A stretch of DNA of 60,790 nt, taken from IMG/VR virus record IMGVR_UViG_3300025018_000166, positions 1-60,790 of that record; one strand, given 5' to 3'. The DNA comes from a virus (taxonomy: Duplodnaviria > Caudoviricetes). Below, in pieces: positions 21 through 52,114 of the stretch. The notes under the pieces are model-generated. The model was not told where the DNA came from, did not search any database, and worked only from the letters and a program-made list of their open reading frames with translations. Every line of letters starts with the position of its first letter. Positions within the stretch are counted from its first letter, which is position 1. The position numbers and the translations under genes are program-made.

Positions 21-70
21 TTGACGTGCGTACGCACGACGCGTAGGATGTGGGTGGAGGTACGACCATG
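21..70 (+). promoter_or_regulatory. Class-1 promoter/operator/RBS cassette, copy 1
   Basis: TTGACG(21-26)-17 bp-TAGGAT(44-49), perfect 14-bp palindrome CGTGCGTACGCACG (25-38), GGAGG, ATG at 68. Confidence 0.85.
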
Positions 71-9771: not shown

Positions 9772-9822
9772 TTGACGTGCGTACGCGCGAGGGCTTAGGA
9801 TGCTGGTGGAGGTTAGACCATG
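9772..9822 (+). promoter_or_regulatory. Class-1 cassette, copy 2
   Basis: TTGACGtgcgtacgcgcg..TAGGAT..GGAGG..ATG 9820. Confidence 0.85.
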
Positions 9823-10747: not shown

Positions 10748-12604
10748 ATGCCCGCCACCTACCTCACCGGCGACGCGCTCGCCACCCTCGCCACCCTGCC
10801 CGCGAACTCGTTCGACGCCATGCTCTGCGACCCGCCGTACCACCTCACGACCGGCAAGAAGGGCGGCAGCGGCCCCGCGAGCGTCACCCTCGACAACCCG
10901 TACGGACGCGCGCGCGTCACCGCAGGCTTCATGGGGATGACGTGGGACGGCGGCGACGTCGCCCATAATCCCGCCGTGTGGCGCGAGGCGCTGCGCGTGC
11001 TCAAGCCCGGCGCGTTCGCGCTCGTCGCGTGCGGCACCCGCACCCAGCACCGCATGGTGACGGCATTGGAGGATGCGGGCTTCGAGATCCGCGACGTGAT
11101 CGCATGGCTCTACGGCAGCGGCTTCCCCAAGAGCCACGACGTGAGCAAGGGCATCGACCGCGCCGCGGGCGCCGAGCGGCCGGTGATCGGCCCCAACCCG
11201 GCCGCGCGCCCTGGAGACGCGGGCACGGGCGTCGCGGGCGAAACGGCGACGACCAGCAGCGGATGGCGCAAGCCTGTGCGCCCCGACAAGACGGGCGCCG
11301 CCACCCCGGACGCGGAGCGGTGGCAGGGGTACGGCACCGCCCTCAAGCCCGCGATAGAACTGTGGACGCTCGTGCGCAAGCCACCCGAAGGCACGGTCGC
11401 CGCGAACGTTCTAAGGCACGGCACCGGCGCACTCAACATCGACGGGTGCCGAGTGCCGACGGATTGGGCGGCTGATCGCGGGGAGTCGTGGTTGCGAAGC
11501 GGCAAGCAAACGGTCCCCGACGACACCTGGCAAGGCCCAAGCGCAAAAGCGCAAGGTTCGACCGTGGCCGACCGGGTGAACACCCTCGGCCGTTGGCCTG
11601 CGAACGTGATTCATGACGGCAGCGACGAAGTGCTCGCGGGATTCCCAGAGAGCACCGACGGCGTCGCGGTCAAGCGCAACGGCGTAACCCACGGCGGGCG
11701 CATCGCCTTCGGCGGTATCGGCAAACACCCGCCCGGAACCCCTGACGTCGGCTTCGGAGGGTCCGGTAGCGCGGCCCGGTTCTTCTACACGGCTAAGAGT
11801 TCGCGCCACGAGCGCATGGCCGGGCTAGGGCACATCGAAACTATCGTGGTATCGTCAAGCACATGGGACGGCGAGGAACACGAAGCACGGCTCCAGGTGG
11901 ATACGGCACCATCACCCCCAAGGGTTATAGGCGCGTTTGGGACGCCGAACAGCGACGTAGCCGAATGGAACACGTTCTTGTTTGGGAGCGGCATCACGGA
12001 AGCATCCCAGCAGGGATGCAGGTTCACCATCTCGACGGCGACCCCCTCAACAACGCCATCGCCAACCTTGCGCTCGTTGACCCAACGACACACAAGCGCC
12101 TTCACTCTGGCTGCGAGCAGCGAGGTGGACGCTGGTACAAGCCCTGCTCCATCTGCCGCGAACTCAAGCCCATCGACGCCGAGCATTGGTACCTCTCCCG
12201 CGAGGGGTGGCCGCTCTACGGACGGTGCCGACCCTGCCACATCGCCCGAGTGGTGGGCGAGAAACGCGCGCGTAAGGCTGCGAAGCGAAGGCGCCAAAGG
12301 CTCGACCCACCCGACCCATAAGCCGCTCGCCCTGACGACCTACCTCGCGCGGCTGCTGCTACCGCCCGAGCGCGCGGACGGGATGCCGCGGCGGATCGTG
12401 ACGCCGTTCAGCGGTGTCGGCAGCGAGGTGATCGGCGCGCTCCTCGCGGGGTGGGACGAGGCGACGGGCATCGAACTCGATCCCGCGTACGCGAGCATCG
12501 CGCGTGCCCGCACCGCGCATTGGCTTGCGCACCCGCACGACCTCGAAGACGCCGACGAGGCGCCCGTCGCGCCCGCATCGTTCGGCCCCCTGTTCGACGG
12601 TTGA
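10748..12604 (+). CDS. beta-class N6-A/N4-C DNA methyltransferase with a ~160-aa low-complexity insertion
   Basis: DPPY near the N-terminus, WLYGSGFPKS, ALKPA, RWPAN, ARFFY, HPTHKP, PFSGVGS near the C-terminus. Confidence 0.9.
   Translation: MPATYLTGDALATLATLPANSFDAMLCDPPYHLTTGKKGGSGPASVTLDNPYGRARVTAGFMGMTWDGGDVAHNPAVWREALRVLKPGAFALVACGTRTQHRMVTALEDAGFEIRDVIAWLYGSGFPKSHDVSKGIDRAAGAERPVIGPNPAARPGDAGTGVAGETATTSSGWRKPVRPDKTGAATPDAERWQGYGTALKPAIELWTLVRKPPEGTVAANVLRHGTGALNIDGCRVPTDWAADRGESWLRSGKQTVPDDTWQGPSAKAQGSTVADRVNTLGRWPANVIHDGSDEVLAGFPESTDGVAVKRNGVTHGGRIAFGGIGKHPPGTPDVGFGGSGSAARFFYTAKSSRHERMAGLGHIETIVVSSSTWDGEEHEARLQVDTAPSPPRVIGAFGTPNSDVAEWNTFLFGSGITEASQQGCRFTISTATPSTTPSPTLRSLTQRHTSAFTLAASSEVDAGTSPAPSAANSSPSTPSIGTSPARGGRSTDGADPATSPEWWARNARVRLRSEGAKGSTHPTHKPLALTTYLARLLLPPERADGMPRRIVTPFSGVGSEVIGALLAGWDEATGIELDPAYASIARARTAHWLAHPHDLEDADEAPVAPASFGPLFDG
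11863..12321 (+). CDS. HNH homing endonuclease nested in another frame of the methyltransferase
   Basis: GY..EHVLVWERHHG.IP.GMQVHHLDGDPLNNAIANL..H..LH plus CSIC/CRPC; TATCGT 7 nt before ATG. Confidence 0.85.
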   Translation: MGRRGTRSTAPGGYGTITPKGYRRVWDAEQRRSRMEHVLVWERHHGSIPAGMQVHHLDGDPLNNAIANLALVDPTTHKRLHSGCEQRGGRWYKPCSICRELKPIDAEHWYLSREGWPLYGRCRPCHIARVVGEKRARKAAKRRRQRLDPPDP

Positions 12605-12651
12605 CGCGCGTACGCGCGAGGGGTTAGGATGCTCGTGGAGGTACGACCATG
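12601..12651 (+). promoter_or_regulatory. Class-1 cassette, copy 3
   Basis: TTGACG with perfect palindrome CGCGCGTACGCGCG, TAGGAT, GGAGG, ATG 12649; the TGA within the -35 box is the MTase stop. Confidence 0.85.
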
Positions 12652-23234: not shown

Positions 23235-23264
23235 CACGGCACGCGCGGCTAGGGTGAGTGCATG
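23235..23264 (+). promoter_or_regulatory. Class-2 leaderless (late-type) promoter of the portal gene
   Basis: CACGG-N9-CTAGGGT-6 nt-ATG; the same geometry recurs before many structural genes. Confidence 0.7.
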
Positions 23265-25124
23265 ACCAAGGCCCGGCGCTACTTCGCGCGCAAACCCTCC
23301 GACACGCCCGCTGGAACGCCCGACTTCACCAGCGCCTCGCGCGTGCTCATGGATCGGCGCGCACCCGCCGACGAGCGCGCCGACGCGGAAGCGGTGGCCG
23401 CGCAGGCGACAGCGCCGTTCGCGAAGGGCATCGACCCCGACCAGATGCTCGCGTGGGCGCAACGCCTCGCGAAAGCCGAGGACGCGAACGCGCGCCGCGC
23501 GGGCGCCGCCGCCGCGGAGCGCCTGATCAAGCCGCTCAGTCAGGGCATGACGCCGGGCATGGCGAAGCAGGTGGTGACGCTCAGCCCCGAGGAGTCCCGA
23601 ACCGTGTGGCTCCAGCGCCCCGTCGGCCTCGACTTCCCACGGTTGCGGCACATCATCCGCAACGACGTCGTGCTGCGCAGCATCATCTGGACGCGCATCA
23701 GCCAGGTCACGCGGTTCCTGACGCCATCACAGGACGAATGGAAGCCCGGCTTCCGGTTGCGGTACCGCGATCCGAACCGGCAGGTGAACGACAGCGATGC
23801 CGACCGCTTCTGGTGGCTCACCCAGTACGTGATGAACAGCGGCGCCGAGTTCAACACGCGGCGCCGCCGGATGCTCAAACGCGACGGCCTCGTGGACTTC
23901 ACCGCGAAGCACCTTCAGGACTCCCTCGCGCTCGACGCGGCGCCGGTGGAGATCGTGCCGACCCTGAGTGGACGCACGCACGGCTGGGTCGCGGTGGACG
24001 GGGGCCGCACGTACCTCACCGATCCCGTGTACGGCCTCGAAGGGCACGAGGAACGCCCGGAACTCATGGACAAGTACGGGATCGAGTTGCCGGACGCGGA
24101 GCAGACCATCGCGATCCTCACCCGCGAGGGCCGCATCCAGGCGTGGTACACGCACGACGACCTGCTCTACCCGGTCAGGCGCCCCACGTCCGATCACTCG
24201 TGGATGGGGTACGGCCAACCCGAGGTCGAGGAACTGATCCGGGTCGTGACCGCGTTCCTGAACGCGATGGAACTCAACGCGCGCGGCTTCACGCACAACA
24301 GCATCCCGCAGGGCATCCTCACGCTGTTCGGGGACTTCGCGGATCAGGACATTCAGCAACTCCGCGAGGAATGGGACGCATGGACTTCGGGCGTGAGCAA
24401 CCGTTGGCGCCTGCCCGTGCTCGTGAGCAAGGAACGCGAGAGCGGCGCGACGTTCGTCGGCACCGGCCAGAACTTCACCGAGATGATGTTCTCGCGGTGG
24501 ATGACGTTCCTGGTGTCCCTCAAGACGGCGCTGTACCTCATGGACCCGGAGGAGATCAACTTCGACGCGTTCACGAGCCGCGGCGCGAGCCTCAGCGGCA
24601 GCGACACCGAGGAACGCATCACCAGCAGCAAGGACAAGGGCTTGTACCCGCTCCTGACGTTCTACGGCAACACCCTCAACGAACTCGTGCAAACCGTAGA
24701 CGAAGAAGTCGAACTGTACTGGACCGGCCTCCTGCCCGATCAACAGTCGATGAAGCAGGACGAGGGCATCGGCGCGACGTTCGGGGAGTTCCGCCTCAAG
24801 CGCGGCTTGCCGCTACACCCCGTCGAGATCCTGAACGACGCACCCCTCAACCCCGGCTTGCAGGGCATCTACATGCAGGCCGCGCAACCGCAGCAGCCGA
24901 TGGCCGGACCGCCACCGGCCGGTGGTGATGCGGACGAGGACGGCAACCGCGTGATGATGGACGGCGAGGGCAACCCCATGCAAGTGATGCCCGGCCAGGA
25001 CAACCCGGAGATGCAGCAGGAGCAGGGCGAGCAGCCGCAAACGGAACCGCAGATGCCCGAGGACGAGAGCGTAATGGGCAAGGCGGTCAGCCACGACGGC
25101 CAAGCGAGCCTCTGGTGGCCGTGA
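23262..25124 (+). CDS. portal protein
   Basis: DSLALD..EIV, AVDG, GYGQPEVE, FTHNSIPQGIL, EMMFSRWM..LYLMDPEEINF, SKDKGLYPLL. Confidence 0.9.
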   Translation: MTKARRYFARKPSDTPAGTPDFTSASRVLMDRRAPADERADAEAVAAQATAPFAKGIDPDQMLAWAQRLAKAEDANARRAGAAAAERLIKPLSQGMTPGMAKQVVTLSPEESRTVWLQRPVGLDFPRLRHIIRNDVVLRSIIWTRISQVTRFLTPSQDEWKPGFRLRYRDPNRQVNDSDADRFWWLTQYVMNSGAEFNTRRRRMLKRDGLVDFTAKHLQDSLALDAAPVEIVPTLSGRTHGWVAVDGGRTYLTDPVYGLEGHEERPELMDKYGIELPDAEQTIAILTREGRIQAWYTHDDLLYPVRRPTSDHSWMGYGQPEVEELIRVVTAFLNAMELNARGFTHNSIPQGILTLFGDFADQDIQQLREEWDAWTSGVSNRWRLPVLVSKERESGATFVGTGQNFTEMMFSRWMTFLVSLKTALYLMDPEEINFDAFTSRGASLSGSDTEERITSSKDKGLYPLLTFYGNTLNELVQTVDEEVELYWTGLLPDQQSMKQDEGIGATFGEFRLKRGLPLHPVEILNDAPLNPGLQGIYMQAAQPQQPMAGPPPAGGDADEDGNRVMMDGEGNPMQVMPGQDNPEMQQEQGEQPQTEPQMPEDESVMGKAVSHDGQASLWWP

Positions 25125-25125
25125 C

Positions 25126-26223
25126 GTGAGCAGCGAGCACGACATCTGGACGCAGGACGACGATCCGCTCCTGGGCATGCTCGAAACGGACGCGTACGAC
25201 CTCGGCAGCGGCTACCTGCAACGCGTGCATCGCGAAGCGCACGCCGCCCTCGGCCTGCCCGCCCTCACCCGCGGCGCGCTCGCGAGCGCGTACCCGTCCG
25301 TCACCATCGCGAAGGCGCTCGATGATCGCGACCGCGAAGCCCTGCTCAACCGCGCGTACGGCGTCCTCCGCGACCTCAACGCGCGCCGCCGAGCCGGAGA
25401 GCCGGTCACGGTGCCACCCGACCAGTACGACGCCCTCGCGGACGGCGCCACGAGCCGATGGCTCGCCGAGGGGCGCCTGAAGGACCGCGCGGAGAAGACC
25501 GCCGTCGCTCAGTACCTCGTCGGCCGCATGCGCGGCGCCGCCGCCACCCGCGACGCCGCCACCCTCGACGGCATCACCGCCGATCCGCGCGCCGCCCTGC
25601 GCGCCGCGCCCGGCATCGTCGGCGACCGCGCCGCGCTTCAGATCGAGTACGCCGAACACCGCGCCGCCGCGTACGTCACCCGCCTCGCCGACGACGCCCG
25701 CGAACGCATGCGGCAGACGTTGTACGCGTGGGAGATGAACGGTGCGCGCTCGACCGCGCACCTGGAGAGCACGCTGCGCGATCAGTTCGCGACCCTCAAT
25801 CGCGACTGGCGCCGCATCGCGATCACCGAGGCGGCGTTCCATCGCAACAACGGCTTCCTCGCGAGCCTCAAGCCCGGCACCCGCGTGCGCTGGAGCGCCG
25901 CCGCGGACGCCTGCCGCCACTGCCGCAAGTTGGACGGTCGCGAGTTCGAGGTCGTGGACCCCAGCGATCCGAACCGCAACGACGAGAAGCACGTGTGGAC
26001 CGGGAAGGTGCGAGTTGGGTACCGCATCTACCGCGACGAGGACACCGGCGAGTACGTGATCGAGTACCCCGCGATCCCTCTGCACCCGCACTGCCGGTGC
26101 GGCTGGAAGGTGTACGCGGATCCGCTCGCGAGCCTGCCGAAGCAGGAACGCGACCGCGTAGAAGCGCAGATGCGCACGGCGACGTTCGCGATGCGCGCCG
26201 CCGCACGCGACTTCGTGCTGTAA
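25126..26223 (+). CDS. MuF/SPP1 gp7-like head morphogenesis protein
   Basis: LNRDWRRIAITE, ACRHC, IPLHPHCRC. Confidence 0.88.
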   Translation: MSSEHDIWTQDDDPLLGMLETDAYDLGSGYLQRVHREAHAALGLPALTRGALASAYPSVTIAKALDDRDREALLNRAYGVLRDLNARRRAGEPVTVPPDQYDALADGATSRWLAEGRLKDRAEKTAVAQYLVGRMRGAAATRDAATLDGITADPRAALRAAPGIVGDRAALQIEYAEHRAAAYVTRLADDARERMRQTLYAWEMNGARSTAHLESTLRDQFATLNRDWRRIAITEAAFHRNNGFLASLKPGTRVRWSAAADACRHCRKLDGREFEVVDPSDPNRNDEKHVWTGKVRVGYRIYRDEDTGEYVIEYPAIPLHPHCRCGWKVYADPLASLPKQERDRVEAQMRTATFAMRAAARDFVL

Positions 26224-28336: not shown

Positions 28337-28763
28337 CCGGCCTCGACGGCACCCCCGTCCTCATCGGCGCAGGCCCCGCCCTCAAGGTCGCTACCCTGTT
28401 CACCGCATGACCCAGCCCACGCTTGTCAGCCTGTTCGCCGCGAGCGGCGGCGACAGCGACCCGCACGTCGCTCTCGCGCCAACGCTGACCGCCGCGAACG
28501 ACCCAAGCCGTAGCCCGCAGTCCAGCGAAATCACCGCCCAAGTCGCGGCAGTCCACGCAGCTGGGTACGCCGTCCGCCGCCTCACGCCCCGCGAGTGCGA
28601 ACGCCTCCAAGGCTTCCCCGACGACTGGACGGCCCACGACCACAACGGCCGCCCCATCGCCGACACGCACCGCTACCGTATGTGCGGCAACGCCGTGACC
28701 GTGAACGTAATCGAGTGGATCGCCTCGCGCGTGCGCGTCGCCACCGAGCCGCCACCCACTTGA
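28333..28763 (+). pseudogene. internally deleted C5-cytosine methyltransferase remnant
   Basis: LKVATLFT* (28333-28410), then MTQPTLVSLFA joined to VRRLTPRECERLQGFPDDWT..RYRMCGNAVTV (28407-28763); no catalytic PC or ENV motif. Confidence 0.75.
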
Positions 28764-28810
28764 CGTGCGTACGCGCGAGGGCGTACGATGGTGACGGAGG
28801 TACGATCATG
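28760..28810 (+). promoter_or_regulatory. Class-1 cassette, copy 4
   Basis: TTGACGtgcgtacgcgcg..TACGAT..GGAGG..ATG 28808; supplies the upstream TGA. Confidence 0.85.
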
Positions 28811-29044: not shown

Positions 29045-29310
29045 GGTGCCCGCCGCTCGAATGGCGCAACACCGCGCGCGGCGCGGGCCGCGATCTGTTC
29101 TGGCGCCTCTACGCCGGAACGACCATGCTCGCAGCGGTCGGCATCGACTACGGCGTGTGGCGCGCCGACGATCCGAGCGCGCGGTGGCGACCACGCGCGC
29201 TCGTGCCGGGCGTCACGTTCTTCAAGAACGAGAGCACGTTGGACGAAGCGAAAACCGTCGCGGAAGCCGCGGTGCGGGCGTGGTTCGAGGCGCTACCCGA
29301 CCCCACTTGA
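29041..29310 (+). CDS. small hypothetical protein
   Basis: ATGA overlap; TLDEAK..AE motif; stop lies within the next -35 box. Confidence 0.7.
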   Translation: MRCPPLEWRNTARGAGRDLFWRLYAGTTMLAAVGIDYGVWRADDPSARWRPRALVPGVTFFKNESTLDEAKTVAEAAVRAWFEALPDPT

Positions 29311-29357
29311 CGTGCGTACGCGCGTCGGCGTACCATGTCGGTGGAGGTAAGACCATG
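29307..29357 (+). promoter_or_regulatory. Class-1 cassette, copy 5
   Basis: TTGACGtgcgtacgcgcg..TACCAT..GGAGG..ATG 29355. Confidence 0.85.
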
Positions 29358-29783: not shown

Positions 29784-29809
29784 CCGCCCCCGGCCCGCGC
29801 CGGGGGCGG
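29784..29809 (+). terminator. GC hairpin
   Basis: perfect 11-bp stem ccgcccccggc/gccgggggcgg; no clear U-tract. Confidence 0.5.
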
Positions 29810-29986
29810 TACGCTTGAGCCGGGCGCGCGACACCGTGGGAGGCCACGGCACAGCGCGACGGTAAGGGTAGATGGCCGACTCCGCACTCGCCGACCGGCC
29901 TGCCCCGAGTGATCGCTACCGGGATCTCGACCGACCGGCGCGCGCCCACCACCGCCTGCGACGGCGGCGCCCGCTACCGTGAGGGC

Positions 29987-32900
29987 ATGTACCGGCCGAC
30001 GTTCACCGCGGGCTACTACGAAGCGCACCACCCGCGGGTGGGCCGCGTGATCTTCTACGCGACCCTCAGCCCGCTCGAACACGTGACGTTCGCGAAGGCG
30101 GGTGACGCGCCGGACGAGAAGTGGATCACCCTCAAACCGCACGGCCCCGACCACCCCTCGTACGTGCACGTCAAGATCCGACAGCACGTGGACGGCACCG
30201 CCTCGGTCATCACCGGCGCACCCGAACTCCGCGGCCTGCGCCTGAACCGCATGAAGAAGCCGGACGATCCCGACGCCGCACCGAGCGGTGGCCGGAAGGC
30301 GCTGCGCGCCGCCGCGAAGGAACGCGTGGCGGGCCTCAGCGATCAGCAGCGCGAGGTGCGCGCGCAACGGCAGAAGGCGCTGAAGGACAAGGTCGCCGAA
30401 GTCACGAAGCGCGCCGCGTCGCTCGCCAAGGAGTTCACCGGCGGCAGCGACGACGACGACAAGGACGACGAACCGCTCACGAAGGTGCAGACGCGCTTGC
30501 GGCGGCTGGAGCGCGAAACGATTCGCGAACTCGCGCAGGACACCACCGTCCGCGCCGCCGTCCTCGGTCACGACGAAAGCGTGAGCGCCGATCAGGTGCC
30601 CGGCGCCCTGCCGACCGGCAGCGGCACGCGGGGGTACGCGTTCAGCGCCAAGGAAGAAGCCGCGGAGCGCGGCTTCACCCGCGAGGACGCGCGCAAGGAG
30701 GACGACGCGTTCTTTCAGAAGCGCGTGGACGCCGTCCTCGCTACGGACCCGGTGAAGGCCGCACGGATGATCGAGGCGCGCGAGCGCATGCAGGCGCGCC
30801 GCGACGAACGCGAGCAGAACCCGAAGCCGAAGCCGCCGCGGCCGGATCCGGTGAAGCCCGAGCAGTTGGTCGAGAACGCCGCGAAAGCCCGCGAGTACCT
30901 GGGCGCCATGCGGGAACTGCGCGCGATGAAGCGCCAACTCAGGATCACGAACCTCGCGCTCGATCCCGACAGCAGCGACGCCGAACTCGACGCGATGACG
31001 CGCGCCAGCGAACCGCCGAAGGATGCACCGTGGGACGTGAGCGCCAGCACCCTCAGCCCGGAGCACGCGCGGGAGATCGAGAAGGCCGTCAAGGACGCCG
31101 CGGATGAAGACCTCACGCGCGCGTTCCTGGACGCCGCTACCGCCGACGAAGGCATGGGGTGGGGCTACGACCGCATGCGCACCGCCTTGCGCGCACCGCA
31201 CGCGGCGGGCGCGTACGCGCACCTCAACAACCTCGCGCTCGCCACGTACGGCCACGAAGTCCTCGACCGCACCGCGCTCGACATGCTCGGCACGAACGCC
31301 GCCGCGCAACTCCTCGCGCGGCACCTGATCCAGAACCAGACACCCGAAGACCTCGATCTACTCCGCGACGGCTTGGGCGAGTACCACGACCGCAACAGCA
31401 CCGAGCGCATGCGCACCGCCCTCGATGAAGCGCAGGTCGCGCGCGACGCCGCCGCCGAGATGGAAGTCCCCGACATCACCGCGAACGTGGACGCCGTCGT
31501 GGCACGCCGCATGATCCTCGACAAGCGCCGGATGCTGGAGAAGGCGCACCATGCGCTCGGCACCGCGCTCGGGCAGGTCGAAGCGGGCGCCGCGATCAAC
31601 TTCGCGCTCGGTCGCCCGAAGCAAGACCAGTTGATCGTGGACTTGGGCGACACCGACGTCGAGCGCGCCAGCACGAACCTGCGCGCCCTCGGCCTCGATG
31701 ACGGCCAGTACGACTTCCATCGCGACGCCGAAGGGCGCCTGTGGACGTCAATCAACGGCGCGGGCATGGACGCGCTCACGCAGCCAGTGGACCCCGCCGA
31801 AGCCGAACTCGCGGACGCCGTGAACGCGATCAAGGACGGCGCCGAGGACGAAGCCGACTGGCTACCCGCAGGCTTCACGCGGTACCCCGCCAGCGCGTTC
31901 GACAAGAACCCGCCGCTACCCGAAGCGTTCGCTACCAACCCCCTCGCGCCCGACCCCGACGACGACGGCGAACCGAAACCGATCAGCGACCGCATGCGCG
32001 ACGCCGTCGCCAGCCGCCTCGCGGACGGCTGGAACCCCGCCGAAGTGCGCCGGTACCTCACCAGCGAGGGCACCCTGAGCGCGATGCCTACGCACGAGCG
32101 CGCCGAAGCGGAAGCCGCGATCAGCGACCTCATGCCTCTGCGCGACGCCGACGGTGAACCCATCGACTACGCACGCATGCACGAGAAGCACCCGGACGCG
32201 TACGCGACCCTCATGGGCACCGCGACCGACTGGGCGCGCGAGAACAAGCCCGACGAGGCATCGTTCCTCGACCAGCAGATCAGCGACACCGACCCGGACG
32301 TGCACCGCGCGCTGTTCATGGCGATCACCGAGGATCCCGCAACGCAGGTCGCGCACAAGCCCATCGGCACCCTCACCCCGCAAGATCAACGCGCGATCCG
32401 CGGGTACTTCCTCCAGAGCATCGTCGGCCTCAGCCCCGAGCAGATGGCCGAACGTCAGGAGGACGCGGGCAAAGCCGTCGAAGGCTGGGAGAAGGCCACG
32501 AACGCGGACGGCACCATCCGAAACCCCATGCCCGACAAGTTCGTCGGCCTCATGGGCGCCAAACCGAACCCGTACGTGACCCTGCGCCTCAACGTGCCCG
32601 CCCGATCCGACGAGAAGAAGGCGCTCACGAGCATGGGGTTGACGGAGGAGGGCGTGCACTTCGTTCGCGACGCCCAAGGCGAAACGATCACGCTCACCGA
32701 GGAAGGCAAGCGTGCGCTGAAGCCGCCGCCGAGCGCGTGGGCCGACAAGATCAAGGGCTTGGAGGGCTTGAACCCGGCGTACCGCTCGTGGCACGACGAC
32801 CGCAAGAAGGTCGCCGCCGCCGCGTTCAACCCCGACGACACCCCGGAGTGGCGCGACTTCGTCGCGAACGTCGGCGGCGCGCAGCAAGCACAGAAGGTCG

Positions 32901-35900
32901 TGCAACAGCACATGCAGGGCGCCCTCGCGGATCGCTTCCAGCGGTACCACGCGAACCTCACGAAGAAGCCGTTGCGCCTCACGACCCGCCCGAACGATCA
33001 CGGCGACATGCTCATGCGCCTGCAAGACCCCGAGGAGTTCCAGCGCCTCAGCGCCCGAATCAAAGCGGAGCAGGACGAGAGCCGCGTTCGCGAAGGCGGG
33101 AAGTTCGCGGACATGGGCGGCAAGGGCGCCCTCAAGCGCGCGTTCGAGGAGCAGGAGCAGAAGCGTCGCGCCGCCGCCCTCGCGCAAGGCAGCATGTTCG
33201 GCGGCGCCAGTGAGGACAACGGCGGCAAGCGCCCGGATCCGATCCGGCACTTCGAGCGCGTCGCCCTGCCCGACCACATCGCCGCGCGCCTCGGCGCGAT
33301 GACGACCACCGTCGCGGGCAGCATCGGCCCGAACACGAACCCCGTGAACCTCATCCCGGACCTCACGATGGGTAGCGGGACGAAGTTCGTGAAGCAGCAG
33401 CGCGCGATCAAAGCCGCGTTGCGCGCCAAGAAGTTCGCGACCTTCCTCGGCGTCGGGTGCGTGGACGGCGCGACGCTACTCACGGACGCCGTGACGGGCG
33501 AAACCCGGTCGTTCCACGAGTGGATGATCGCGCGCCGCGCGCCGCGCGTGTGGGCACTCGATCAGCAGCAGAAGCCGGTCATCGCGCAGGCGACGGTGCC
33601 GTTCGTGAAGGCGTTCGAGCCGATGTTCGACGTCGCGACCACCGGAGGACGCACGATCCGCGTCGCAGCCGGGCACAAGTTCCTCACGCCCGACGGGTGG
33701 CAGCCGCTCAAGAGCCTTCGCGTCGGCGACGCCGTCGGTACGCCCGCCCGCCTTCGCGGATGCGCTCCTTCCCTTCCGGCGTCCAGTTCGGCACTTGCCC
33801 CTTCAGGGTCGCCGCAAGATGCGCACCGTTCGACTCGTACACCGCCAGGTTCGACGGATCGTTGTTCGCCACGTCCCCGTCCAGGTGATGCACGACCTCA
33901 CGCCGCCGCAACCGGCGCCCTAGCGTGCGCTCCATCACCAACCGATGCTCACGCACGTACCCGTTCGAGTTCGCATGCGGATGGTCCGGTGCACGCACAA
34001 GCCGATACCCATGCTTATCCACAACCACCCCGCCTCCCCATGACGGGTTTCGCTCACCTAGACGCGCCCCTTCGGGAAGCCGCGGGATGCCAAACCGAAT
34101 CGTGGCTTGACGCACCGACTCCGCGCTCGAAAGGCCCAGCGCAGCCGCGATCTCGGACGTGCTCAACCCACGCGCCGCAAGTTCTCGTAGCCGCGCTTCC
34201 TGATCCGCAAGTGGACTCGGCCGACCCTTCCGCGCCGGTGTACCGCCCGCCAACACCAACGCCGTCATCACAAGGCGCTGCGAGCAACCCAGGGCGCGAG
34301 CCAGCGCCGGGCCGCGCTCACCCGCCTCGTAGCGACGCCGGACTTCCTCTTGGAACGCTGGATCGTTCTGCCGACCGTACGGCTTTCGAGGCATGGACGC
34401 AGCATACCTTGGGGTGGGATGCGGTCGAGAGCATCATCGAACGCGCGCCCGACCTTGTGTACGACATCACCGTGCCGCACCACGCGAACTACCTCGCGCA
34501 CGGCATGTGGCACCACAACAGCGGCAAGACCGCCGTCGGGATCGGCGCGTTCACGGAGGCGCACGCGAAGGGACTTGTGCGCAAAGGCATGTTCGTGGTG
34601 CCGAGCATCGTCAGGAACCAGTTCGGCGAGGAGATGGCGCGCACCGTCGAGCCGGGCAAGTTCGGATGGCACGCCGGAGAAGCGAACCTGGACGAGCGCC
34701 TGAAGCAGTATCAGAACCCGGACACGCACATGGTCAGCGTCACGCACCAGGCGTTCCGGGACGACATGGTGACGCTCATGCAGCGCGCGCACGGGTACGA
34801 CGACGCGGACGAAGCCGCGGACGCGTTCCTCGAAGCGGACCCCGGCGAGCGCACGCGGATGCTCAAGAAGGCGCTCGATCAGCACCAGATCCCGATGGAG
34901 TTCCTGATGATGGACGAGGCGCACGACAGCCTCGACCGCGCCGGGAAGGCCGAGAGCCTATTGACCGCCGTCACCGAAACCGCGATGGGCCTCGCGAGCC
35001 ACGCGATCCTCGCGACCGGCAGCCCCGTCAAGAACGACGCCAGCGAAGTCCACTCCTGGCTGAAGAAGTTGGACCCGCAACGGTTTGGGGATCGCGACGA
35101 GTTCATGCGCAAGTACGGCACGGACATGCACGCCAGCGCCGAAGCCCTCAAGCGCCTCATGGGCCGGTACGCGTACTCGGACGTGGTCGCCAGCGGATCG
35201 AGCAAGACCGTGACGTGGGGCGCCGAAGGCGAAAACGGCGACAGCCCGAGCGGGCACGCACGCATCCGCCTCAGCCCGCAGCAGCGCGCCAGCCTCGCGC
35301 ACACCCGCGACGCGTACGAGCGCGCGCGCCGCGCCCGGCAGAACGGCGGCGTGGACGTGGAGGCGCTGAAGGTGCTCACGCCGCGCTCGTTCGAGCGCAC
35401 GAAGCCGGACCAGCACCAGGCACTCGCGAAGCGCCTCAACCGTGCCTTGGGCGCGCTGAAGCACGCCGCCGAGAGCCGGGTCGTGAACGAGGCACCCGCG
35501 GAGCACAACGCGAAGATCCAGCACGTCCTGAAGCTCGCGGACGGGCGCCGCGGGAAGGGCGGCGTCGTGTTCGCGCACAATCGCGCGAGCGTCACGAACC
35601 TCGCCGCGTCGTTAGAGAAGGCCGGGCACAAGGTCGCGACGCTCACCGGCAGCGACAGCAGCGAGCAGAAGGCGCGCATCCGGGAGCGGTTCAAGCGTGG
35701 CGAGATCGACGTCATCGTCGCCAGCGACGCCGCCGCGACCGGCGCGAACCTCCAGGATCGCGGCGAATGGCTCGTGAACTACGACCTGCCGCTCACGTAC
35801 AAGACGCTGGAGCAGCGGAACGCGCGCATCGACCGCCTCGGCCAAACGCGCCACATCGAACTGCACCACCTGATCACGGACGCGGATCACGACACCGACA

Positions 35901-36061
35901 ACCTCGACCGCCTCACCCGCAAGCACGCGCTCGCGGGCATCCTGCAAGGCGAGCACGAGAGCCTGGACGACACCGGCCTCGCGAAGTACCTCAACGTCGC
36001 CGCCGCCGCGCGCACCACCGAACCGCCCGCGCCCGCCGAAGACCAGGGAGGCATGTTCTGA
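29987..36061 (+). CDS. giant virion-type protein with an intein-interrupted SNF2/SF2 helicase
   Basis: GVG|SGKT Walker A split by the intein, MMDEAH, ATGSPVKN, AAATGANLQ, EQRNARIDRLGQ; leaderless TACCGT-6 nt-ATG at 29987. Confidence 0.88.
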   Translation: MYRPTFTAGYYEAHHPRVGRVIFYATLSPLEHVTFAKAGDAPDEKWITLKPHGPDHPSYVHVKIRQHVDGTASVITGAPELRGLRLNRMKKPDDPDAAPSGGRKALRAAAKERVAGLSDQQREVRAQRQKALKDKVAEVTKRAASLAKEFTGGSDDDDKDDEPLTKVQTRLRRLERETIRELAQDTTVRAAVLGHDESVSADQVPGALPTGSGTRGYAFSAKEEAAERGFTREDARKEDDAFFQKRVDAVLATDPVKAARMIEARERMQARRDEREQNPKPKPPRPDPVKPEQLVENAAKAREYLGAMRELRAMKRQLRITNLALDPDSSDAELDAMTRASEPPKDAPWDVSASTLSPEHAREIEKAVKDAADEDLTRAFLDAATADEGMGWGYDRMRTALRAPHAAGAYAHLNNLALATYGHEVLDRTALDMLGTNAAAQLLARHLIQNQTPEDLDLLRDGLGEYHDRNSTERMRTALDEAQVARDAAAEMEVPDITANVDAVVARRMILDKRRMLEKAHHALGTALGQVEAGAAINFALGRPKQDQLIVDLGDTDVERASTNLRALGLDDGQYDFHRDAEGRLWTSINGAGMDALTQPVDPAEAELADAVNAIKDGAEDEADWLPAGFTRYPASAFDKNPPLPEAFATNPLAPDPDDDGEPKPISDRMRDAVASRLADGWNPAEVRRYLTSEGTLSAMPTHERAEAEAAISDLMPLRDADGEPIDYARMHEKHPDAYATLMGTATDWARENKPDEASFLDQQISDTDPDVHRALFMAITEDPATQVAHKPIGTLTPQDQRAIRGYFLQSIVGLSPEQMAERQEDAGKAVEGWEKATNADGTIRNPMPDKFVGLMGAKPNPYVTLRLNVPARSDEKKALTSMGLTEEGVHFVRDAQGETITLTEEGKRALKPPPSAWADKIKGLEGLNPAYRSWHDDRKKVAAAAFNPDDTPEWRDFVANVGGAQQAQKVVQQHMQGALADRFQRYHANLTKKPLRLTTRPNDHGDMLMRLQDPEEFQRLSARIKAEQDESRVREGGKFADMGGKGALKRAFEEQEQKRRAAALAQGSMFGGASEDNGGKRPDPIRHFERVALPDHIAARLGAMTTTVAGSIGPNTNPVNLIPDLTMGSGTKFVKQQRAIKAALRAKKFATFLGVGCVDGATLLTDAVTGETRSFHEWMIARRAPRVWALDQQQKPVIAQATVPFVKAFEPMFDVATTGGRTIRVAAGHKFLTPDGWQPLKSLRVGDAVGTPARLRGCAPSLPASSSALAPSGSPQDAHRSTRTPPGSTDRCSPRPRPGDARPHAAATGALACAPSPTDAHARTRSSSHADGPVHAQADTHAYPQPPRLPMTGFAHLDAPLREAAGCQTESWLDAPTPRSKGPAQPRSRTCSTHAPQVLVAALPDPQVDSADPSAPVYRPPTPTPSSQGAASNPGREPAPGRAHPPRSDAGLPLGTLDRSADRTAFEAWTQHTLGWDAVESIIERAPDLVYDITVPHHANYLAHGMWHHNSGKTAVGIGAFTEAHAKGLVRKGMFVVPSIVRNQFGEEMARTVEPGKFGWHAGEANLDERLKQYQNPDTHMVSVTHQAFRDDMVTLMQRAHGYDDADEAADAFLEADPGERTRMLKKALDQHQIPMEFLMMDEAHDSLDRAGKAESLLTAVTETAMGLASHAILATGSPVKNDASEVHSWLKKLDPQRFGDRDEFMRKYGTDMHASAEALKRLMGRYAYSDVVASGSSKTVTWGAEGENGDSPSGHARIRLSPQQRASLAHTRDAYERARRARQNGGVDVEALKVLTPRSFERTKPDQHQALAKRLNRALGALKHAAESRVVNEAPAEHNAKIQHVLKLADGRRGKGGVVFAHNRASVTNLAASLEKAGHKVATLTGSDSSEQKARIRERFKRGEIDVIVASDAAATGANLQDRGEWLVNYDLPLTYKTLEQRNARIDRLGQTRHIELHHLITDADHDTDNLDRLTRKHALAGILQGEHESLDDTGLAKYLNVAAAARTTEPPAPAEDQGGMF
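33458..34519 (+). mobile_element. 354-aa intein in helicase motif I
   Basis: CVDGAT N-terminus, AAGHKFLTPDGW block B, VYDITVPHHANYLAHGMWHHN|S C-terminus. Confidence 0.93.
33708..34394 (-). CDS. HTH-HNH homing endonuclease encoded antisense within the intein
   Basis: two HTH segments, NPSWGGG..GY..HPHA..GYVREHRLVME..LGR.L..EVVHHLDGDVANNDPSNL; TATGCT 6 nt before ATG on -. Confidence 0.88.
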   Translation of the reverse strand: MPRKPYGRQNDPAFQEEVRRRYEAGERGPALARALGCSQRLVMTALVLAGGTPARKGRPSPLADQEARLRELAARGLSTSEIAAALGLSSAESVRQATIRFGIPRLPEGARLGERNPSWGGGVVVDKHGYRLVRAPDHPHANSNGYVREHRLVMERTLGRRLRRREVVHHLDGDVANNDPSNLAVYESNGAHLAATLKGQVPNWTPEGKERIREGGRAYRRRRRREGS

Positions 36062-39000
36062 TGCCGGACACGAAGCGCAAGGACGCACGGGATCAGCCAC
36101 CGCCGACGCCGGAGGACGCGAAGAAGATGCTCGCGGCGCTCACCGGCGATCTCGCGCGCACCGACGCGGAACTCGACCGCGTGCACCAGGCCGCCGAACG
36201 GCTGCACGACCACCATCGTGCACGCCGCGACCTCGCGAGCGGTGCGATCACCGACTACCGGCCGTCGCACCTCACCGCCGAGTACCTGGATCACGTCCGC
36301 GAAAGCGCCCGAGCGGATGCGCTCGCGAACGCGGACGGCGCCCTCGACCACCACGCCGCCCGCGACCGGCTACCGTTCGCGAAGGCCGACCAACCGAGCC
36401 TGTTCGGATCGTCCCCGCTCATCCCCGTGAAGAAGGTCGTGCGCCGCAAGGACGGCGCGCACGTGCAGACGTTCCACGTCAGGCCCGCCGACACGCGCCC
36501 CGCGGAGCGCGTGAGCATGTTCGATCCCGCCGCCGCACCCCCCGAACCCACACCCGCGCTTGACGCGCGTACGCACGAGGCGTACACTTCGGGTGGAGGT
36601 TCGACCATGACCACGAACGCGACCGAGAAACCGACCGCGCCCGTCCCCACCGTCCAAGGCATCACCGCGCTCCTGAAGCGCGCTGGACTCACGTCCCGCG
36701 CGTCCGGCACCGCGTACGGCTACGGCGGCACCGCGGCGGGTTTCGTCGTCGGCAAGGAATACGATCCCCGCATCAAAGGCGGCGCGGTCCGGGTCCGATA
36801 CAACGGCGGCGCACTCGCGCAACTGCCGAATCACCCCGAAGCCCTCGCGATGGCCCGACCCGTCCTCGCCGAAGCGGGCTTTGCGATCACGAACAGCATG
36901 GGCGACTGGATCGTCACCGCCGCGCCGCAACCGGAGCCAACCCCCGAGCCGGTCGCGGCGCCCGACCCGACCGAGGACGATGCGCCCGCGACGACCATCG
37001 TGCAGGTGCCGACCACGTTCTACGACGACCACGTGGATCGCCAACTGCCCGCCGGTCGCGTGATCAAGCGCACGAGCCGGTACGTCCGCCTCGAACTCGA
37101 CGCCGACGACCACGCGGAACTCCTGAGCGACGCCGAGCATTACAGCGAGAGCGACGACTTCGACATGACGGACCCGCGCATGCGCGGCCTCGTCCTCAGC
37201 GCCCGCGCCACCGCGAAGGCGCTGCGCAAAGGCGAAGCGCCCGCGCCGCTCACCGAAAACGCCGCCGAGAAGCGCGCCATGAAGGACGCCATCGAAACCG
37301 GCGACAGCGACGGCCACGCGTTCGCGTTCGACCACCGCGACACCCCCGACATCGAACACCTGATCCCGGACTTCCTCGCGAACCTCCGCATCCCGTACGC
37401 CCACCGCGAGCACCCGACCCGCATCGCCGCGATGCGCGTCGCCGCCGAACAAGGATTCCGCGCAGCGCACGCGCGCTTCCGCGCCACCCTCGCGCCCGAA
37501 CCGGAACCCGAGCCGGAACCCGAGCCGGTCGAGGCGCCCGCCGACAAGCCGAAGGTCACGGTGCGCGCGTACGACATCCACGAAACCGAGCACGGGTGGC
37601 GGATCGAGCAGACGCACGAGTCGTTCCGCAGCGCCGCCGAAGCCAGCGCCGCCGTCCGCGCGCGCGATCAAGCCGCCAGCGACGACGAAGGCACGAGCAT
37701 CGTCAGCACGATCTCGTGGCACCCGACCACGAACGCGGGAACCCGCATCGTCCAGACGTTGCAAGCGATGGGCGGCGCGGTCGAACCCGAGGAGCGGCCC
37801 GCGCCGACGCTGAAGAAGGTGCGCGCAGGCTTGTACCAGGCCGAGCGGTTCATCGACGGCAAGCGCGCCACGTTCCAGATCGAGCGCATCGAGCGCGGCG
37901 ACACGGCCCACGCGAGCGACGTGGGGCTGTGGGCCGTGCACGTCAACAGCGACGTCGGCGAACCCTGGTACCAGACCCTCGCGGAAGCCCGCGCGTACGT
38001 CCTCGACGGCGATTGGTACTGGCACCCTCAGTACGGCCTCACGCCCGGCAAAGCGCCAACGCCCGAACCCGATCCCGAACTGAAGCCGAAGCCCGAACCG
38101 AAGCACCGCGTTCGCATGACGGACACCCAGTACGCCGCCGCCATCGAGCAACGCATGGACGGAGGCGAGCACGTGGACGGCCTGAAGTGGGACGGCCGCA
38201 ACTTGCTCGTGGACGATCCCGCCGCCGTCAGCGCCGCCCTCACCGACATGGCGAATCAGGAAGACGCGCAAGCCGAGGAGAGCGACGGCGACACCCGGAA
38301 GCACGCGCGCGCCGCCTCGACCGCCCTCAGCAACCTCGCGCTGAAGGTGGCGCGCCTTGCCTACGACCCCGAACCGGACCCCACCCCCCCCGTTGACGCG
38401 CGTACGCACGAGGCGTACACTTCGGGTGGAGGTTCGACCATGACCGATACCACCCCGAGCACGAAGATCGTTCGCGCCACCGACGCCGACGGTTTCGGCC
38501 GCGAGTTCCGCATCCGCGAGGACGGCGTCACCGAAGCCCGCGAAATGCTCGACGGCGAAGCCCTCAGCGATTGGAAGACGACGCCCGAGTTCCAGAACAC
38601 CAAGACCCTCGGAGGCGTGTTCCAAGCGCCCGAAGACCTCGATCACATCGTCCGCAGCCTCAACCGCAAACTCGGCACGAAGGGCAACTGGCAGACCGTC
38701 GAGATCGTGGACGCCGACGAGTCCGACGCCCGCGTGGACGCGCTCGCGAAACTCCTCGCGGAACGCCACGACAAGGTGCTCCAGGACGTCGATAACGAGT
38801 TCGCCCGCCAGCGCGCCGAGGAGGAAGCCAAGGACCGCGAAGCGGGCGCCGACTCCGCGCGCCGCCGCGTGGATCAAACGCTGCGCTACGACGGCAGCCT
38901 CGAAGACGCGCAACGCGAGAGCAAGTACGACCTCATCGCCCGCAGCAAGGCGTACACCGAGGCGTACGAAGCGGCCCTGACCGAAGGCTTCCGCACCGCG

Positions 39001-39795
39001 CCGCCGTACCGGCCGTCCCGCGACGAAGCCGCGCACGCGTCGTACAAGAGCGGCGTCAAGACCGCCGCGAAACTCCTGCACCTGCTCGATGATCCCGCGA
39101 ACGCGGACCGCGAGCGGATCAAGGACTTCGTGAACACGGCGATGTGGAAGCACACGAGCCTGTTCCCGAAGAAGTACCGCGGCGTCGCCGGTCAGGACTT
39201 GCCGATGTACGACGCCGAGAACTTCGAGCACGGCCTAGCGAACGGCTTGTGGGACTTGCGGCACACCGAACCCGAAGCGCCCACCGATCCGAACGTGCCG
39301 CTTCCGAACGCCGACGATCTCCTCGCCGAGCACGCGCGCGCCATCGCGACCGCCGAAGCGACCCCCGACTTCGATGAACCGGAACCCGACCGGCCCGACC
39401 TCAACGAGCCGTGGGGCAGCATGAAGTCGCAGGTGTGGCACGCGTGGCGCAACCGTCGCGACACGCACGACGAGAAGCGCGCGATTCCCGCGCCACCGAT
39501 CACCGTCGAGCACAACGACGCCGAAGCCAAAGCGTTCGTGCGCGGCTGGGAGCGGTACATCCCAACCTACCAACGGATCGCCGCCGACTTCGACTTCGAC
39601 AGTTACGAGGTCAGCCGCGACGCCGACCACCTCAACATCGCCTTCGTCCTCAAGCCCCGCAAGTGGTACGACACCTACCGCCACTTCATGCTCCGCATCG
39701 GCGCGCGCGGCAAGATCCAGTCCTTCACGAAGAAGAACTCGAAGTCCGGCAGCATGCGCTGGACCGACGGCTTCATCTCGACGGACGGGAAGTAG
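36061..39795 (+). CDS. giant multi-module virion-type protein (1244 aa)
   Basis: TGATG coupling with GGGAGG RBS; FAKA-QPSLF-KKVVRRKDG module; small domains joined by PEPEP linkers. Confidence 0.8.
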   Translation: MPDTKRKDARDQPPPTPEDAKKMLAALTGDLARTDAELDRVHQAAERLHDHHRARRDLASGAITDYRPSHLTAEYLDHVRESARADALANADGALDHHAARDRLPFAKADQPSLFGSSPLIPVKKVVRRKDGAHVQTFHVRPADTRPAERVSMFDPAAAPPEPTPALDARTHEAYTSGGGSTMTTNATEKPTAPVPTVQGITALLKRAGLTSRASGTAYGYGGTAAGFVVGKEYDPRIKGGAVRVRYNGGALAQLPNHPEALAMARPVLAEAGFAITNSMGDWIVTAAPQPEPTPEPVAAPDPTEDDAPATTIVQVPTTFYDDHVDRQLPAGRVIKRTSRYVRLELDADDHAELLSDAEHYSESDDFDMTDPRMRGLVLSARATAKALRKGEAPAPLTENAAEKRAMKDAIETGDSDGHAFAFDHRDTPDIEHLIPDFLANLRIPYAHREHPTRIAAMRVAAEQGFRAAHARFRATLAPEPEPEPEPEPVEAPADKPKVTVRAYDIHETEHGWRIEQTHESFRSAAEASAAVRARDQAASDDEGTSIVSTISWHPTTNAGTRIVQTLQAMGGAVEPEERPAPTLKKVRAGLYQAERFIDGKRATFQIERIERGDTAHASDVGLWAVHVNSDVGEPWYQTLAEARAYVLDGDWYWHPQYGLTPGKAPTPEPDPELKPKPEPKHRVRMTDTQYAAAIEQRMDGGEHVDGLKWDGRNLLVDDPAAVSAALTDMANQEDAQAEESDGDTRKHARAASTALSNLALKVARLAYDPEPDPTPPVDARTHEAYTSGGGSTMTDTTPSTKIVRATDADGFGREFRIREDGVTEAREMLDGEALSDWKTTPEFQNTKTLGGVFQAPEDLDHIVRSLNRKLGTKGNWQTVEIVDADESDARVDALAKLLAERHDKVLQDVDNEFARQRAEEEAKDREAGADSARRRVDQTLRYDGSLEDAQRESKYDLIARSKAYTEAYEAALTEGFRTAPPYRPSRDEAAHASYKSGVKTAAKLLHLLDDPANADRERIKDFVNTAMWKHTSLFPKKYRGVAGQDLPMYDAENFEHGLANGLWDLRHTEPEAPTDPNVPLPNADDLLAEHARAIATAEATPDFDEPEPDRPDLNEPWGSMKSQVWHAWRNRRDTHDEKRAIPAPPITVEHNDAEAKAFVRGWERYIPTYQRIAADFDFDSYEVSRDADHLNIAFVLKPRKWYDTYRHFMLRIGARGKIQSFTKKNSKSGSMRWTDGFISTDGK
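36560..36612 (+). promoter_or_regulatory. Class-1 cassette, copy 6, internal and in frame
   Basis: TTGACG-17 bp-TACACT, GGAGG, in-frame ATG 36607. Confidence 0.8.
38393..38445 (+). promoter_or_regulatory. Class-1 cassette, copy 7, internal and in frame
   Basis: 53 bp identical to 36560-36612; in-frame ATG 38440. Confidence 0.8.
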
Positions 39796-39826
39796 GTCCG
39801 ACGGCGACGCGCGCTACGGTGCACCC

Positions 39827-52078: not shown

Positions 52079-52114
52079 CTCGTGTGCTACCCCACGCGCC
52101 GCTACCGTGAGAGC

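Follow-up and report, generated by a model that had tools for sequence, protein, structure and literature searches.

Results

Two identical cassettes inside one open reading frame

We analysed a window of 60,790 bp that constitutes the whole of an IMG/VR virus record (IMGVR_UViG_3300025018_000166; estimated completeness 75%, GC content about 70%), which its terminase, portal and capsid genes identify as a phage. The subject of this report is a 53-bp cassette, with the layout of a promoter, a ribosome-binding site and a start codon, that lies twice within a single open reading frame (ORF) encoding the 1244-amino-acid (aa) protein P0001. The features of this locus are as follows:

36061..39795 (+): giant gene 2, the P0001 ORF, 1244 aa
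36376..36480 (+): leader motif, FAKA (residues 106–109) followed by PLIPVKKVVRRKDGAHVQTFHV; residues 121–140 form a predicted beta-hairpin
36560..36612 (+): embedded cassette 1, with its ATG at 36607 (residue 183 of the ORF)
36560–36565: −35 hexamer TTGACG of cassette 1
36564–36577: 14-bp dyad CGCGCGTACGCACG of cassette 1
36583–36588: −10 hexamer TACACT of cassette 1, after a 17-nt spacer
36595–36599: GGAGG of cassette 1
36613..38392 (+): block between the two cassettes, modules A–E
38393..38445 (+): embedded cassette 2, identical in sequence to cassette 1, with its ATG at 38440 (residue 794)
38393–38398: −35 hexamer of cassette 2
38397–38410: dyad of cassette 2
38416–38421: −10 hexamer of cassette 2
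38428–38432: GGAGG of cassette 2

The 53-mer occurred exactly twice in the window, with 0 mismatches between the copies, and none of 100 shuffled sequences contained any match (0/100). Identity ran from the first T of TTGACG to ATGACC, that is, two codons past the ATG, and the similarity of the pair reached 72 nt at 92% (repeat family D4). Outside the identical stretch, 13 of 19 bases were kept upstream, and the downstream flanks were unrelated. The two copies are separated by 1833 nt (3 × 611) and are therefore read in the same frame, both encoding (L/V)DARTHEAYTSGGGSTMT within the ORF; in each, GGAGG stands 7 nt ahead of an in-frame ATG. A third-position GC plot showed a single coding frame from about 36040 to 39800, running through both copies. 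The repeat and its frame were thus as described in an earlier sequence-only reading of this DNA, and the PEP-rich linkers and the N-terminal FAKA/KKVVRRKDG motif that it had pointed out were both present in P0001. The protein is laid out as leader, cassette 1, modules A–E, cassette 2 and modules F–G, with Pro/Glu-rich linkers in between; the other module junctions consisted of plain Pro/Glu linkers with no trace of a cassette. In TGATG, the stop codon of the SNF2 gene upstream and the start codon of the ORF overlap, and GGGAGG precedes this start.

Free copies of the cassette

To find the family to which the embedded pair belongs, the record was searched with the 72-nt stretch and all GCGTACGC sites were then inspected, which yielded five additional copies, each heading a small ORF:

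21..70 (+): free cassette c20, 17-nt spacer, −10 hexamer TAGGAT; heads an 89-aa ORF; the copy closest to the embedded pair (84%)
9772..9822 (+): free cassette c9771, downstream of the large terminase gene; heads a 104-aa ORF
12601..12651 (+): free cassette c12600, with the methylase gene upstream; heads an 88-aa ORF
28760..28810 (+): free cassette c28759, upstream gene ending in ...EPPPT; heads a 78-aa ORF
29307..29357 (+): free cassette c29306, upstream gene ending in ...LPDPT; heads a 136-aa ORF

An nhmmer profile built from the seven copies gave exactly seven matches at E ≤ 1.8e-17, all on the plus strand, and the next-best match (E = 0.004) covered the ribosome-binding part only. The E-values of the embedded copies (1.8e-18 and 9e-18) fell inside the range of the five free copies. 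The free copies were 76–84% identical to the embedded pair and differed among themselves by 10–22%; the earlier statement that the same cassette heads free-standing small genes held for five ORFs of 78–136 aa, as a matter of family resemblance and not of identity. The consensus consists of TTGACG, a 17- or 18-nt spacer containing the dyad CGYGCGTACGCRCG, TAnnnT, GGTGGAGGT, seven bases and ATG, with c28759 carrying GACGGAGGT where the other cassettes have GGTGGAGGT.

In c12600, c28759 and c29306, the TGA within TTGACG is the stop codon of the upstream gene (12602–12604, 28761–28763 and 29308–29310, respectively), the coding frame switches at that TGA, and the cassette makes up the entire intergenic space. 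A sigma-70 consensus scan of the whole window returned 8 sites against about 2.2 expected, 7 of the 8 being the cassettes. The embedded TTGACG/17 nt/TACACT arrangement matched 9 of the 12 sigma-70 consensus positions, a score equal to that of the five free copies. The window scan found no terminator-like site within or directly at any cassette, and the sole symmetry was the 14-bp spacer dyad, which by its sequence looks like an operator. A candidate for the protein that would bind it is the HTH protein encoded at 1917–2774. The palindrome GCGTACGC itself occurred at 19 sites in the window against 3.3 expected; 7 of these coincide with the cassette dyads, and the remaining 12, located for the most part within genes, may be binding sites of one regulator or may reflect a codon effect of Ala-Tyr-Ala. 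Searches of viral, metagenome and genome contigs with cassette patterns found no other genome with the cassette.

Stand-alone homologs of the modules

A set of 1.84 billion representative proteins was searched with the part of P0001 that starts at ATG 36607 and runs up to the stop; 463 matches had E ≤ 0.001, and 150 of these were listed. Behind ATG 36607, P0009 (103 aa) and P0010 (104 aa) aligned from their first residue to their end at 55–56% identity. Behind ATG 38440, P0005 (95 aa), P0011 (85 aa) and P0046 (97 aa) did likewise at 47–60% identity. These stand-alone homologs of 85–104 aa thus begin at an embedded ATG and end where the next part of P0001 starts. Two further modules had stand-alone homologs of their own (P0007 and P0013, 89 and 91 aa; P0086 and P0100, 94 and 129 aa), so that the search proposed earlier for small-gene counterparts of each module turned them up both behind the embedded start codons and elsewhere in the protein. 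In all, P0001 comprises at least five segments with separate homolog sets, many of whose members are stand-alone proteins of 80–130 aa. The 451-aa P0002 begins at ATG 38440 and might pass for a free-standing form; we rejected it as such because its contig simply starts at 38416. A search for a longer, fused version of the 136-aa gene at 29355 found none, which is weak evidence.

Module B (36973–37320) is a common domain of about 85 aa that accounted for 138 of the 150 matches listed, many of them stand-alone proteins. Its structure was predicted with confidence (predicted local distance difference test score, pLDDT, 87.5), and it gave neither a Pfam family nor a Foldseek match in the PDB at E ≤ 0.1. 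A structure search with module A returned generic alpha/beta matches only (best Z 6.2). P0001 as a whole matched no Pfam family at E ≤ 0.01, its segments matched no relevant one at E ≤ 1, and no family in Pfam, PHROG or NCBIfam accounts for the protein.

How the embedded copies are read through

Each embedded copy is open in the frame of its ATG only, the other two frames being stopped by TGA, in one case within the −35 hexamer and in the other overlapping the ATG. The free cassette c20, read in its ATG frame, is closed solely by the TAG of its −10 hexamer TAGGAT; the embedded copies have TACACT in its place, which still fits TAnnnT. In c28759 and c29306, ...CCCAC abuts TTGACG directly, and both embedded copies show the same CCCAC followed by eight extra bases ahead of TTGACG, which shift the TGA out of frame. 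The phase shift, the 17-nt spacer and TACACT together make the cassette readable as a 17-residue linker. On this comparison, a few small changes would convert the series gene, stop, promoter, start and gene into one reading frame.

The cassette shows no adjustment to coding, being written in codons that are rare in the four giant genes of the window, namely ACT (1.3% of Thr codons), CTT (4.4% of Leu), GGT and GGA (7.8% and 7.0% of Gly), GTT (4.0% of Val) and CGT (5.2% of Arg). This usage would fit either a recent capture or selection on signals in the DNA. A structure prediction of residues 100–310 placed the cassette peptide in a stretch with pLDDT < 50, preceded by the confident beta-hairpin and followed by the folded module A; in this model, the cassette is tolerated as a disordered linker.

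A run of eight C residues (38384–38391, plus strand) ends one base ahead of cassette 2; no other run of G or of C in the window reaches a length of eight, and the eight additional bases ahead of this cassette belong to the C run. A change of +1 or −1 in the run would bring a TGA into frame, either within the −35 hexamer or overlapping the ATG, and would split the ORF. Such a slip would leave the downstream part with its own cassette.

A related protein and the assembly of the repeat

A relative, P0003 (923 aa), is encoded on a 4839-bp contig of run X4, from another study, and was 72% identical to P0001 where their N-terminal parts, including the leader, align. After the leader of P0003 comes DARTHEAYDAGGGSTMTTTTEKPTA (DARTHEAYDAGGGSTMTT), then directly module E, and then a different C-terminal part with an LPD1 domain (PF18796). 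The two proteins share the leader, the cassette peptide and MTTxxTEKPTA, and diverge afterwards. The cassette peptide kept 15 of 17 residues in P0003, whereas the linker directly before it showed insertions, deletions and substitutions. No cassette is present at the junction after module E in P0003, a cassette at that place being found in this window only. As judged from the two sequences, the embedded cassette after the leader is common to two diverged phages whose cargo differs.

The cassette peptide was absent from P0152, a more distant protein with the leader, and a protein search with the leader region found two proteins of near length and no shorter one. Megablast of the ORF against phages and plasmids detected no relatives at the DNA level, and tblastn of P0001 against phages found nothing. 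Searches of viral contigs for related loci with P0001, P0003, leader, module F and module A alignments were empty, as was a search of metagenome contigs with the leader alignment.

The repeat might in principle have brought together pieces that lie apart in the phage. In run X1, which may be the source sample, the Logan contigs (k = 31) ended or began inside both copies, and none of the contigs listed spanned the whole repeat with at least 31 nt on each side; the evidence for how the pieces are ordered therefore comes from the assembly of the window itself and from an argument based on depth. In run X1 the 53-mer formed a separate node with a depth of 31.9, compared to 13.8, 15.5 and 13.9 for the three unique pieces; with the repeat at about double depth and the unique pieces equal, no linear path but that of the window passes through every piece a single time. 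The middle block (15.5) was not below its flanks (13.8 and 13.9), which gives no indication of a form with the block deleted. Contigs of run X2, from another study, showed no differences at 36560–36852 and 38166–38422, and the identical 1244-aa protein is recorded by JGI/IMG and ENA, on two contigs. An assembly artefact, which the sequence-only reading had named as a danger to its proposal, is favoured by the broken contigs and by the lack of a spanning one; against it stand the depths, the two-contig records, a frame and coding signal unbroken across both joints, and the presence of leader and cassette within one ORF in P0003. We therefore regard such an artefact as extremely improbable.

Leader motif and gene context

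The other genes of the phage to which the argument refers are listed below:

7704–9764: large terminase gene
10748–12604: DNA methylase gene
minus strand: SSB and DnaB genes
23262–25124: portal gene
25126–26223: MuF-like minor head protein gene
29909..36061 (+): giant gene 1, SNF2-type helicase, 2050 aa
39827..43471 (+): giant gene 3, 1214 aa
43510..51408 (+): giant gene 4, 2632 aa, LPD1 domain at residues 1655–1741
52082–53026: 314-aa protease-like protein
53317–54033: acidic scaffold-like protein
54040–55512: major capsid protein gene

The four giant genes are all located in the interval from the MuF-like gene to the capsid gene. The 2050-aa SNF2-type helicase contains an intein (Intein_splicing, residues 1213–1537) and has FAKA at residue 61. 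The capsid protein was 63% identical to the capsid proteins of three Thermus phages, which is the best clue to the host. The record contains no tRNA genes.

The full leader motif reads ΦAKA (Φ = F/I/L/M/V), then xEQxxLFG, then PLxPVKKVVRRKDGxHVQTFHV, and has five occurrences across three giant proteins, three of them close to an N-terminus and two internal. In the 1214-aa protein it occupies residues 11–67, with a partial copy at about 801–832 that lacks the FAKA part; in the 2632-aa protein it occupies residues 10–69 and 1772–1826, the latter just past LPD1. The giant genes with an internal motif may have arisen by fusion of leader-bearing genes; alternatively, their proteins may undergo cleavage at that motif. 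The shorter pattern [FILMV]AKA had 22 sites in the window against 2.6 expected (maximum 9 in 300 shuffles), and 20 of the 22 lie inside the portal-to-capsid block (23262–55512). Among these sites, one is at residue 29 of the capsid protein, the acidic scaffold-like protein and the protease-like protein contain four each, and all four giant proteins have the pattern close to their N-terminus; in Thermus phage Lalka8, the homologs have ΦAKA at matching places. Atlas look-alikes of the 314-aa protein are HK97-type prohead proteases (Peptidase_S78), which is a lead and not proof, and the protein shares a short stretch with the N-terminus of the capsid protein (blastp E = 0.001). It had no Pfam or PHROG match and no sequence match in the PDB, and an Atlas search with the leader gave no usable match.

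The distribution of ΦAKA suggests that it is probably a prohead-protease site or a head-assembly motif. Since ΦAKA is common to the capsid N-terminus and to the scaffold-like and protease-like proteins, the role of the giant proteins as head cargo is indirectly supported. The leader had earlier been called head-targeting; its recurrence in the neighbouring giants and the spread of ΦAKA among head proteins speak for this, and the evidence for targeting itself is indirect. Products from the embedded ATGs would be without the leader motif.

The small units had also been taken to be early genes, which was an assumption: the same type of cassette heads the unit containing the terminase gene, and two copies lie within the head-gene block. 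A GC-rich hairpin at about 29784–29809, with a perfect 11-bp stem and no T run, stands right past the stop of the 136-aa gene and may act as a terminator that separates the small genes headed by cassettes from the giant genes. The window scan found no sigma-70-like site ahead of the giant genes or the portal gene. Given this hairpin and the lack of such a site, the giant genes may belong to another transcription class.

Discussion

We propose that this phage uses one conserved cassette seven times, each copy comprising a putative sigma-70-type −35/−10 pair, an operator-like dyad, a strong Shine-Dalgarno sequence and an ATG. In what would be its normal state, the cassette fills the space between small genes and the TGA in TTGACG ends the upstream gene. 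At two sites, small genes would have been welded onto a leader-bearing head-cargo gene with the cassette retained. Every promoter and start element appears intact there and as good as in the free copies, so that three nested products would be most likely: the leader-bearing protein of 1244 aa, a probable prohead cargo, and two leaderless products of 1062 aa (from ATG 36607) and 451 aa (from ATG 38440), which would stay in the producing cell. The two leaderless products would begin with MTTNATEK and MTDTTPST, respectively. We are confident, from the sequence comparisons, that the small genes were captured together with their regulatory cassette. The earlier proposal that promoter-bearing units had been captured and fused is borne out in this respect by the family membership of the embedded copies and by homologs that start at their ATGs; the description of the units as early is not. 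For internal transcription and translation from the embedded cassettes, which is predicted from intact signals, the chances appear evenly divided, and our assessment of the complete explanation, putative activity included, is likewise balanced.

Several observations weigh against such activity. The sigma-70 score measures fit to a consensus that may not apply to the host, and does not in itself indicate promoter activity. In P0003, the changed residues TS → DA overlap the −10 hexamer and the bases after it, and this hexamer loses its last T if the Asp codon is GAC. The P0003 cassette DNA shows at least 3 differences in 53, against 83–91% identity in the flanking coding DNA and about 83–85% in the leader DNA, so that no clear extra conservation is visible at the DNA level. 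RNA folding around the embedded starts was no weaker than the background of the giant genes. Finally, the 100% identity of the embedded pair points to a recent common origin, by duplication, insertion or gene conversion, and the intactness of their elements could reflect youth alone.

The last point leads to the reading that competes most directly with internal use of the cassettes, in which the copies are junctions of a recent fusion that have no function, the full-length polyprotein is the only product and the signals have not yet decayed. A recent event fits the 100% identity of the pair beside the 10–22% differences among free copies; the plain Pro/Glu linkers at the other junctions look as if cassettes decay or get lost, and P0003 has none after module E. 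However, the cassette after the leader is common to P0003, whose leader has diverged to 72% in protein and about 83–85% in DNA, so that junction 1 is not very young, and nonetheless this junction keeps all of its rare codons and both hexamers here. A strong GGAGG placed 7 nt from an ATG, as in the free copies, would also be hard to silence on any mRNA. On balance we consider functionless junctions improbable, though they deserve serious weight. The cassettes might instead serve mainly as short homology for the in-frame swapping, insertion or deletion of modules, with expression secondary. The identity of the copies spans exactly TTGACG to ATGACC between modules that are unrelated on either side, and the block A–E plus one cassette amounts to 1833 bp, or 611 codons, so that recombination between the repeats would delete the block in frame and produce the layout of leader, cassette and cargo seen in P0003, which shares the N-terminal part with P0001 through MTTxxTEKPTA and differs beyond it. 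By analogy, exchanges of this kind are mediated in T4-type phages by the PeSL cassettes, which also form mini-circles (PMC2839356). Neither a deletion nor a circle was seen here, however, in contigs that end at the repeat and could not display one; the middle block is not reduced in depth relative to its flanks, and the viral, metagenome and genome contigs held no other cassette-bearing genome in which exchanges could show. A primary role in recombination thus seems distinctly unlikely, and it would in any case be compatible with our preferred explanation. A third alternative places the function in the peptide, with DARTHEAYTSGGGSTMT kept as a flexible linker or as a processing site that releases modules inside the capsid. 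The 15 of 17 residues kept in P0003 next to a variable linker, the predicted disorder and the apparent processing of head proteins at a motif would agree with this; yet the recurring head-protein motif ΦAKA is absent from the cassette peptide, the other linkers of P0001 are unrelated Pro/Glu runs, and the DNA is homologous to non-coding intergenic cassettes, which makes the peptide a by-product. We give a function of the peptide very little credence.

A broader form of our explanation holds that the cassette is purposely translatable, a universal in-frame joint uniting the functions of promoter, operator, ribosome-binding site, start codon and linker. Such a joint may have three roles. Small anti-host modules may be moved between free genes and packaged polyproteins by homologous recombination; blocks may be deployed twice, injected as leader-bearing cargo and remade leaderless under the same regulator; and the run of eight C residues before cassette 2 may act as a slippage switch between a fused and a split form. 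We think this broader form unlikely, albeit worth stating.

Among the known systems that P0001 resembles are the polyvalent proteins encoded by phages and by conjugative elements (Iyer et al. 2017, PMC5512222). Like those proteins, P0001 is large and composed of many small domains that also exist stand-alone, it occurs in a tailed phage next to portal and MuF-like genes, and its neighbours carry SNF2 and LPD1 domains, the latter found in P0003 as well. Unlike them, P0001 itself has no hallmark Pfam domain (MuF, SNF2/methylase, LPD or peptidases). The word "promoter" has 0 occurrences in the main text of PMC5512222 as available, and regulatory cassettes at domain junctions are not described in it. 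Some modules of P0001 might already be named among the domains listed by Iyer et al. Packaging of P0001 in the manner of polyvalent proteins has indirect signs in the sequence, namely the position between the portal/MuF-like and capsid genes and the shared ΦAKA.

The PeSL cassettes, each a promoter with a terminator stem-loop, are intergenic and drive module shuffling (Arbiol et al. 2010, PMC2839356); that article, in its accessible part, nowhere uses the phrase "in frame". Like PeSLs as described there, the present element is a short repeated sigma-70-like cassette between small accessory genes, with five intergenic copies, and offers possible homology for shuffling. In contrast to PeSLs, it has a dyad in the spacer and no terminator, it includes the Shine-Dalgarno sequence and the ATG, and two of its copies are translated in frame. 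PeSL cassettes are reportedly also treated by Comeau et al. in 2014.

In-frame nested genes with internal starts are familiar from lambda C/Nu3 and T4 gene 49. Cluster K mycobacteriophages carry start-associated sequences, a conserved repeat that is short, lies near the ribosome-binding site and stands just upstream of many start codons; to our knowledge, these have not been reported inside ORFs as in-frame linkers. Phage endolysins produce in-frame short isoforms from internal starts (PMC9430671, PMC4777826 and PMC12203907, in their available portions). Those isoforms were shown by experiment, whereas the short products of P0001 are predicted only; unlike the nested endolysins, P0001 has an internal start that comes with a whole copy of a promoter-like intergenic cassette, and has it twice. 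As for the leader, ΦAKA differs from the processing motifs of T4 and SPN3US. Capsid-targeting propeptides and protease-processed internal or ejection proteins are described in the consulted portions of work on T4 (PMC3012670) and SPN3US (PMC7411985, PMC10052503). The resemblance lies in an N-terminal ΦAKA in the giant proteins that is also found at the capsid N-terminus and in scaffold-like and protease-like proteins.

Polyvalent protein, repeated regulatory cassette and nested in-frame gene are each known, and this locus combines all three. Our literature search found no paper that joins "polyvalent protein" with "internal promoter", and dual deployment of this form is not described for such proteins in the literature searched, as far as its accessible text goes. 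Should the internal signals prove functional, the same modules would be available from a single locus in two versions, one injected and the other newly made. Polyvalent proteins are thought to be built from stand-alone domains, and the act of joining is seldom observed; in this genome the two states coexist and offer a concrete route from operon to polyprotein in which few bases are involved.

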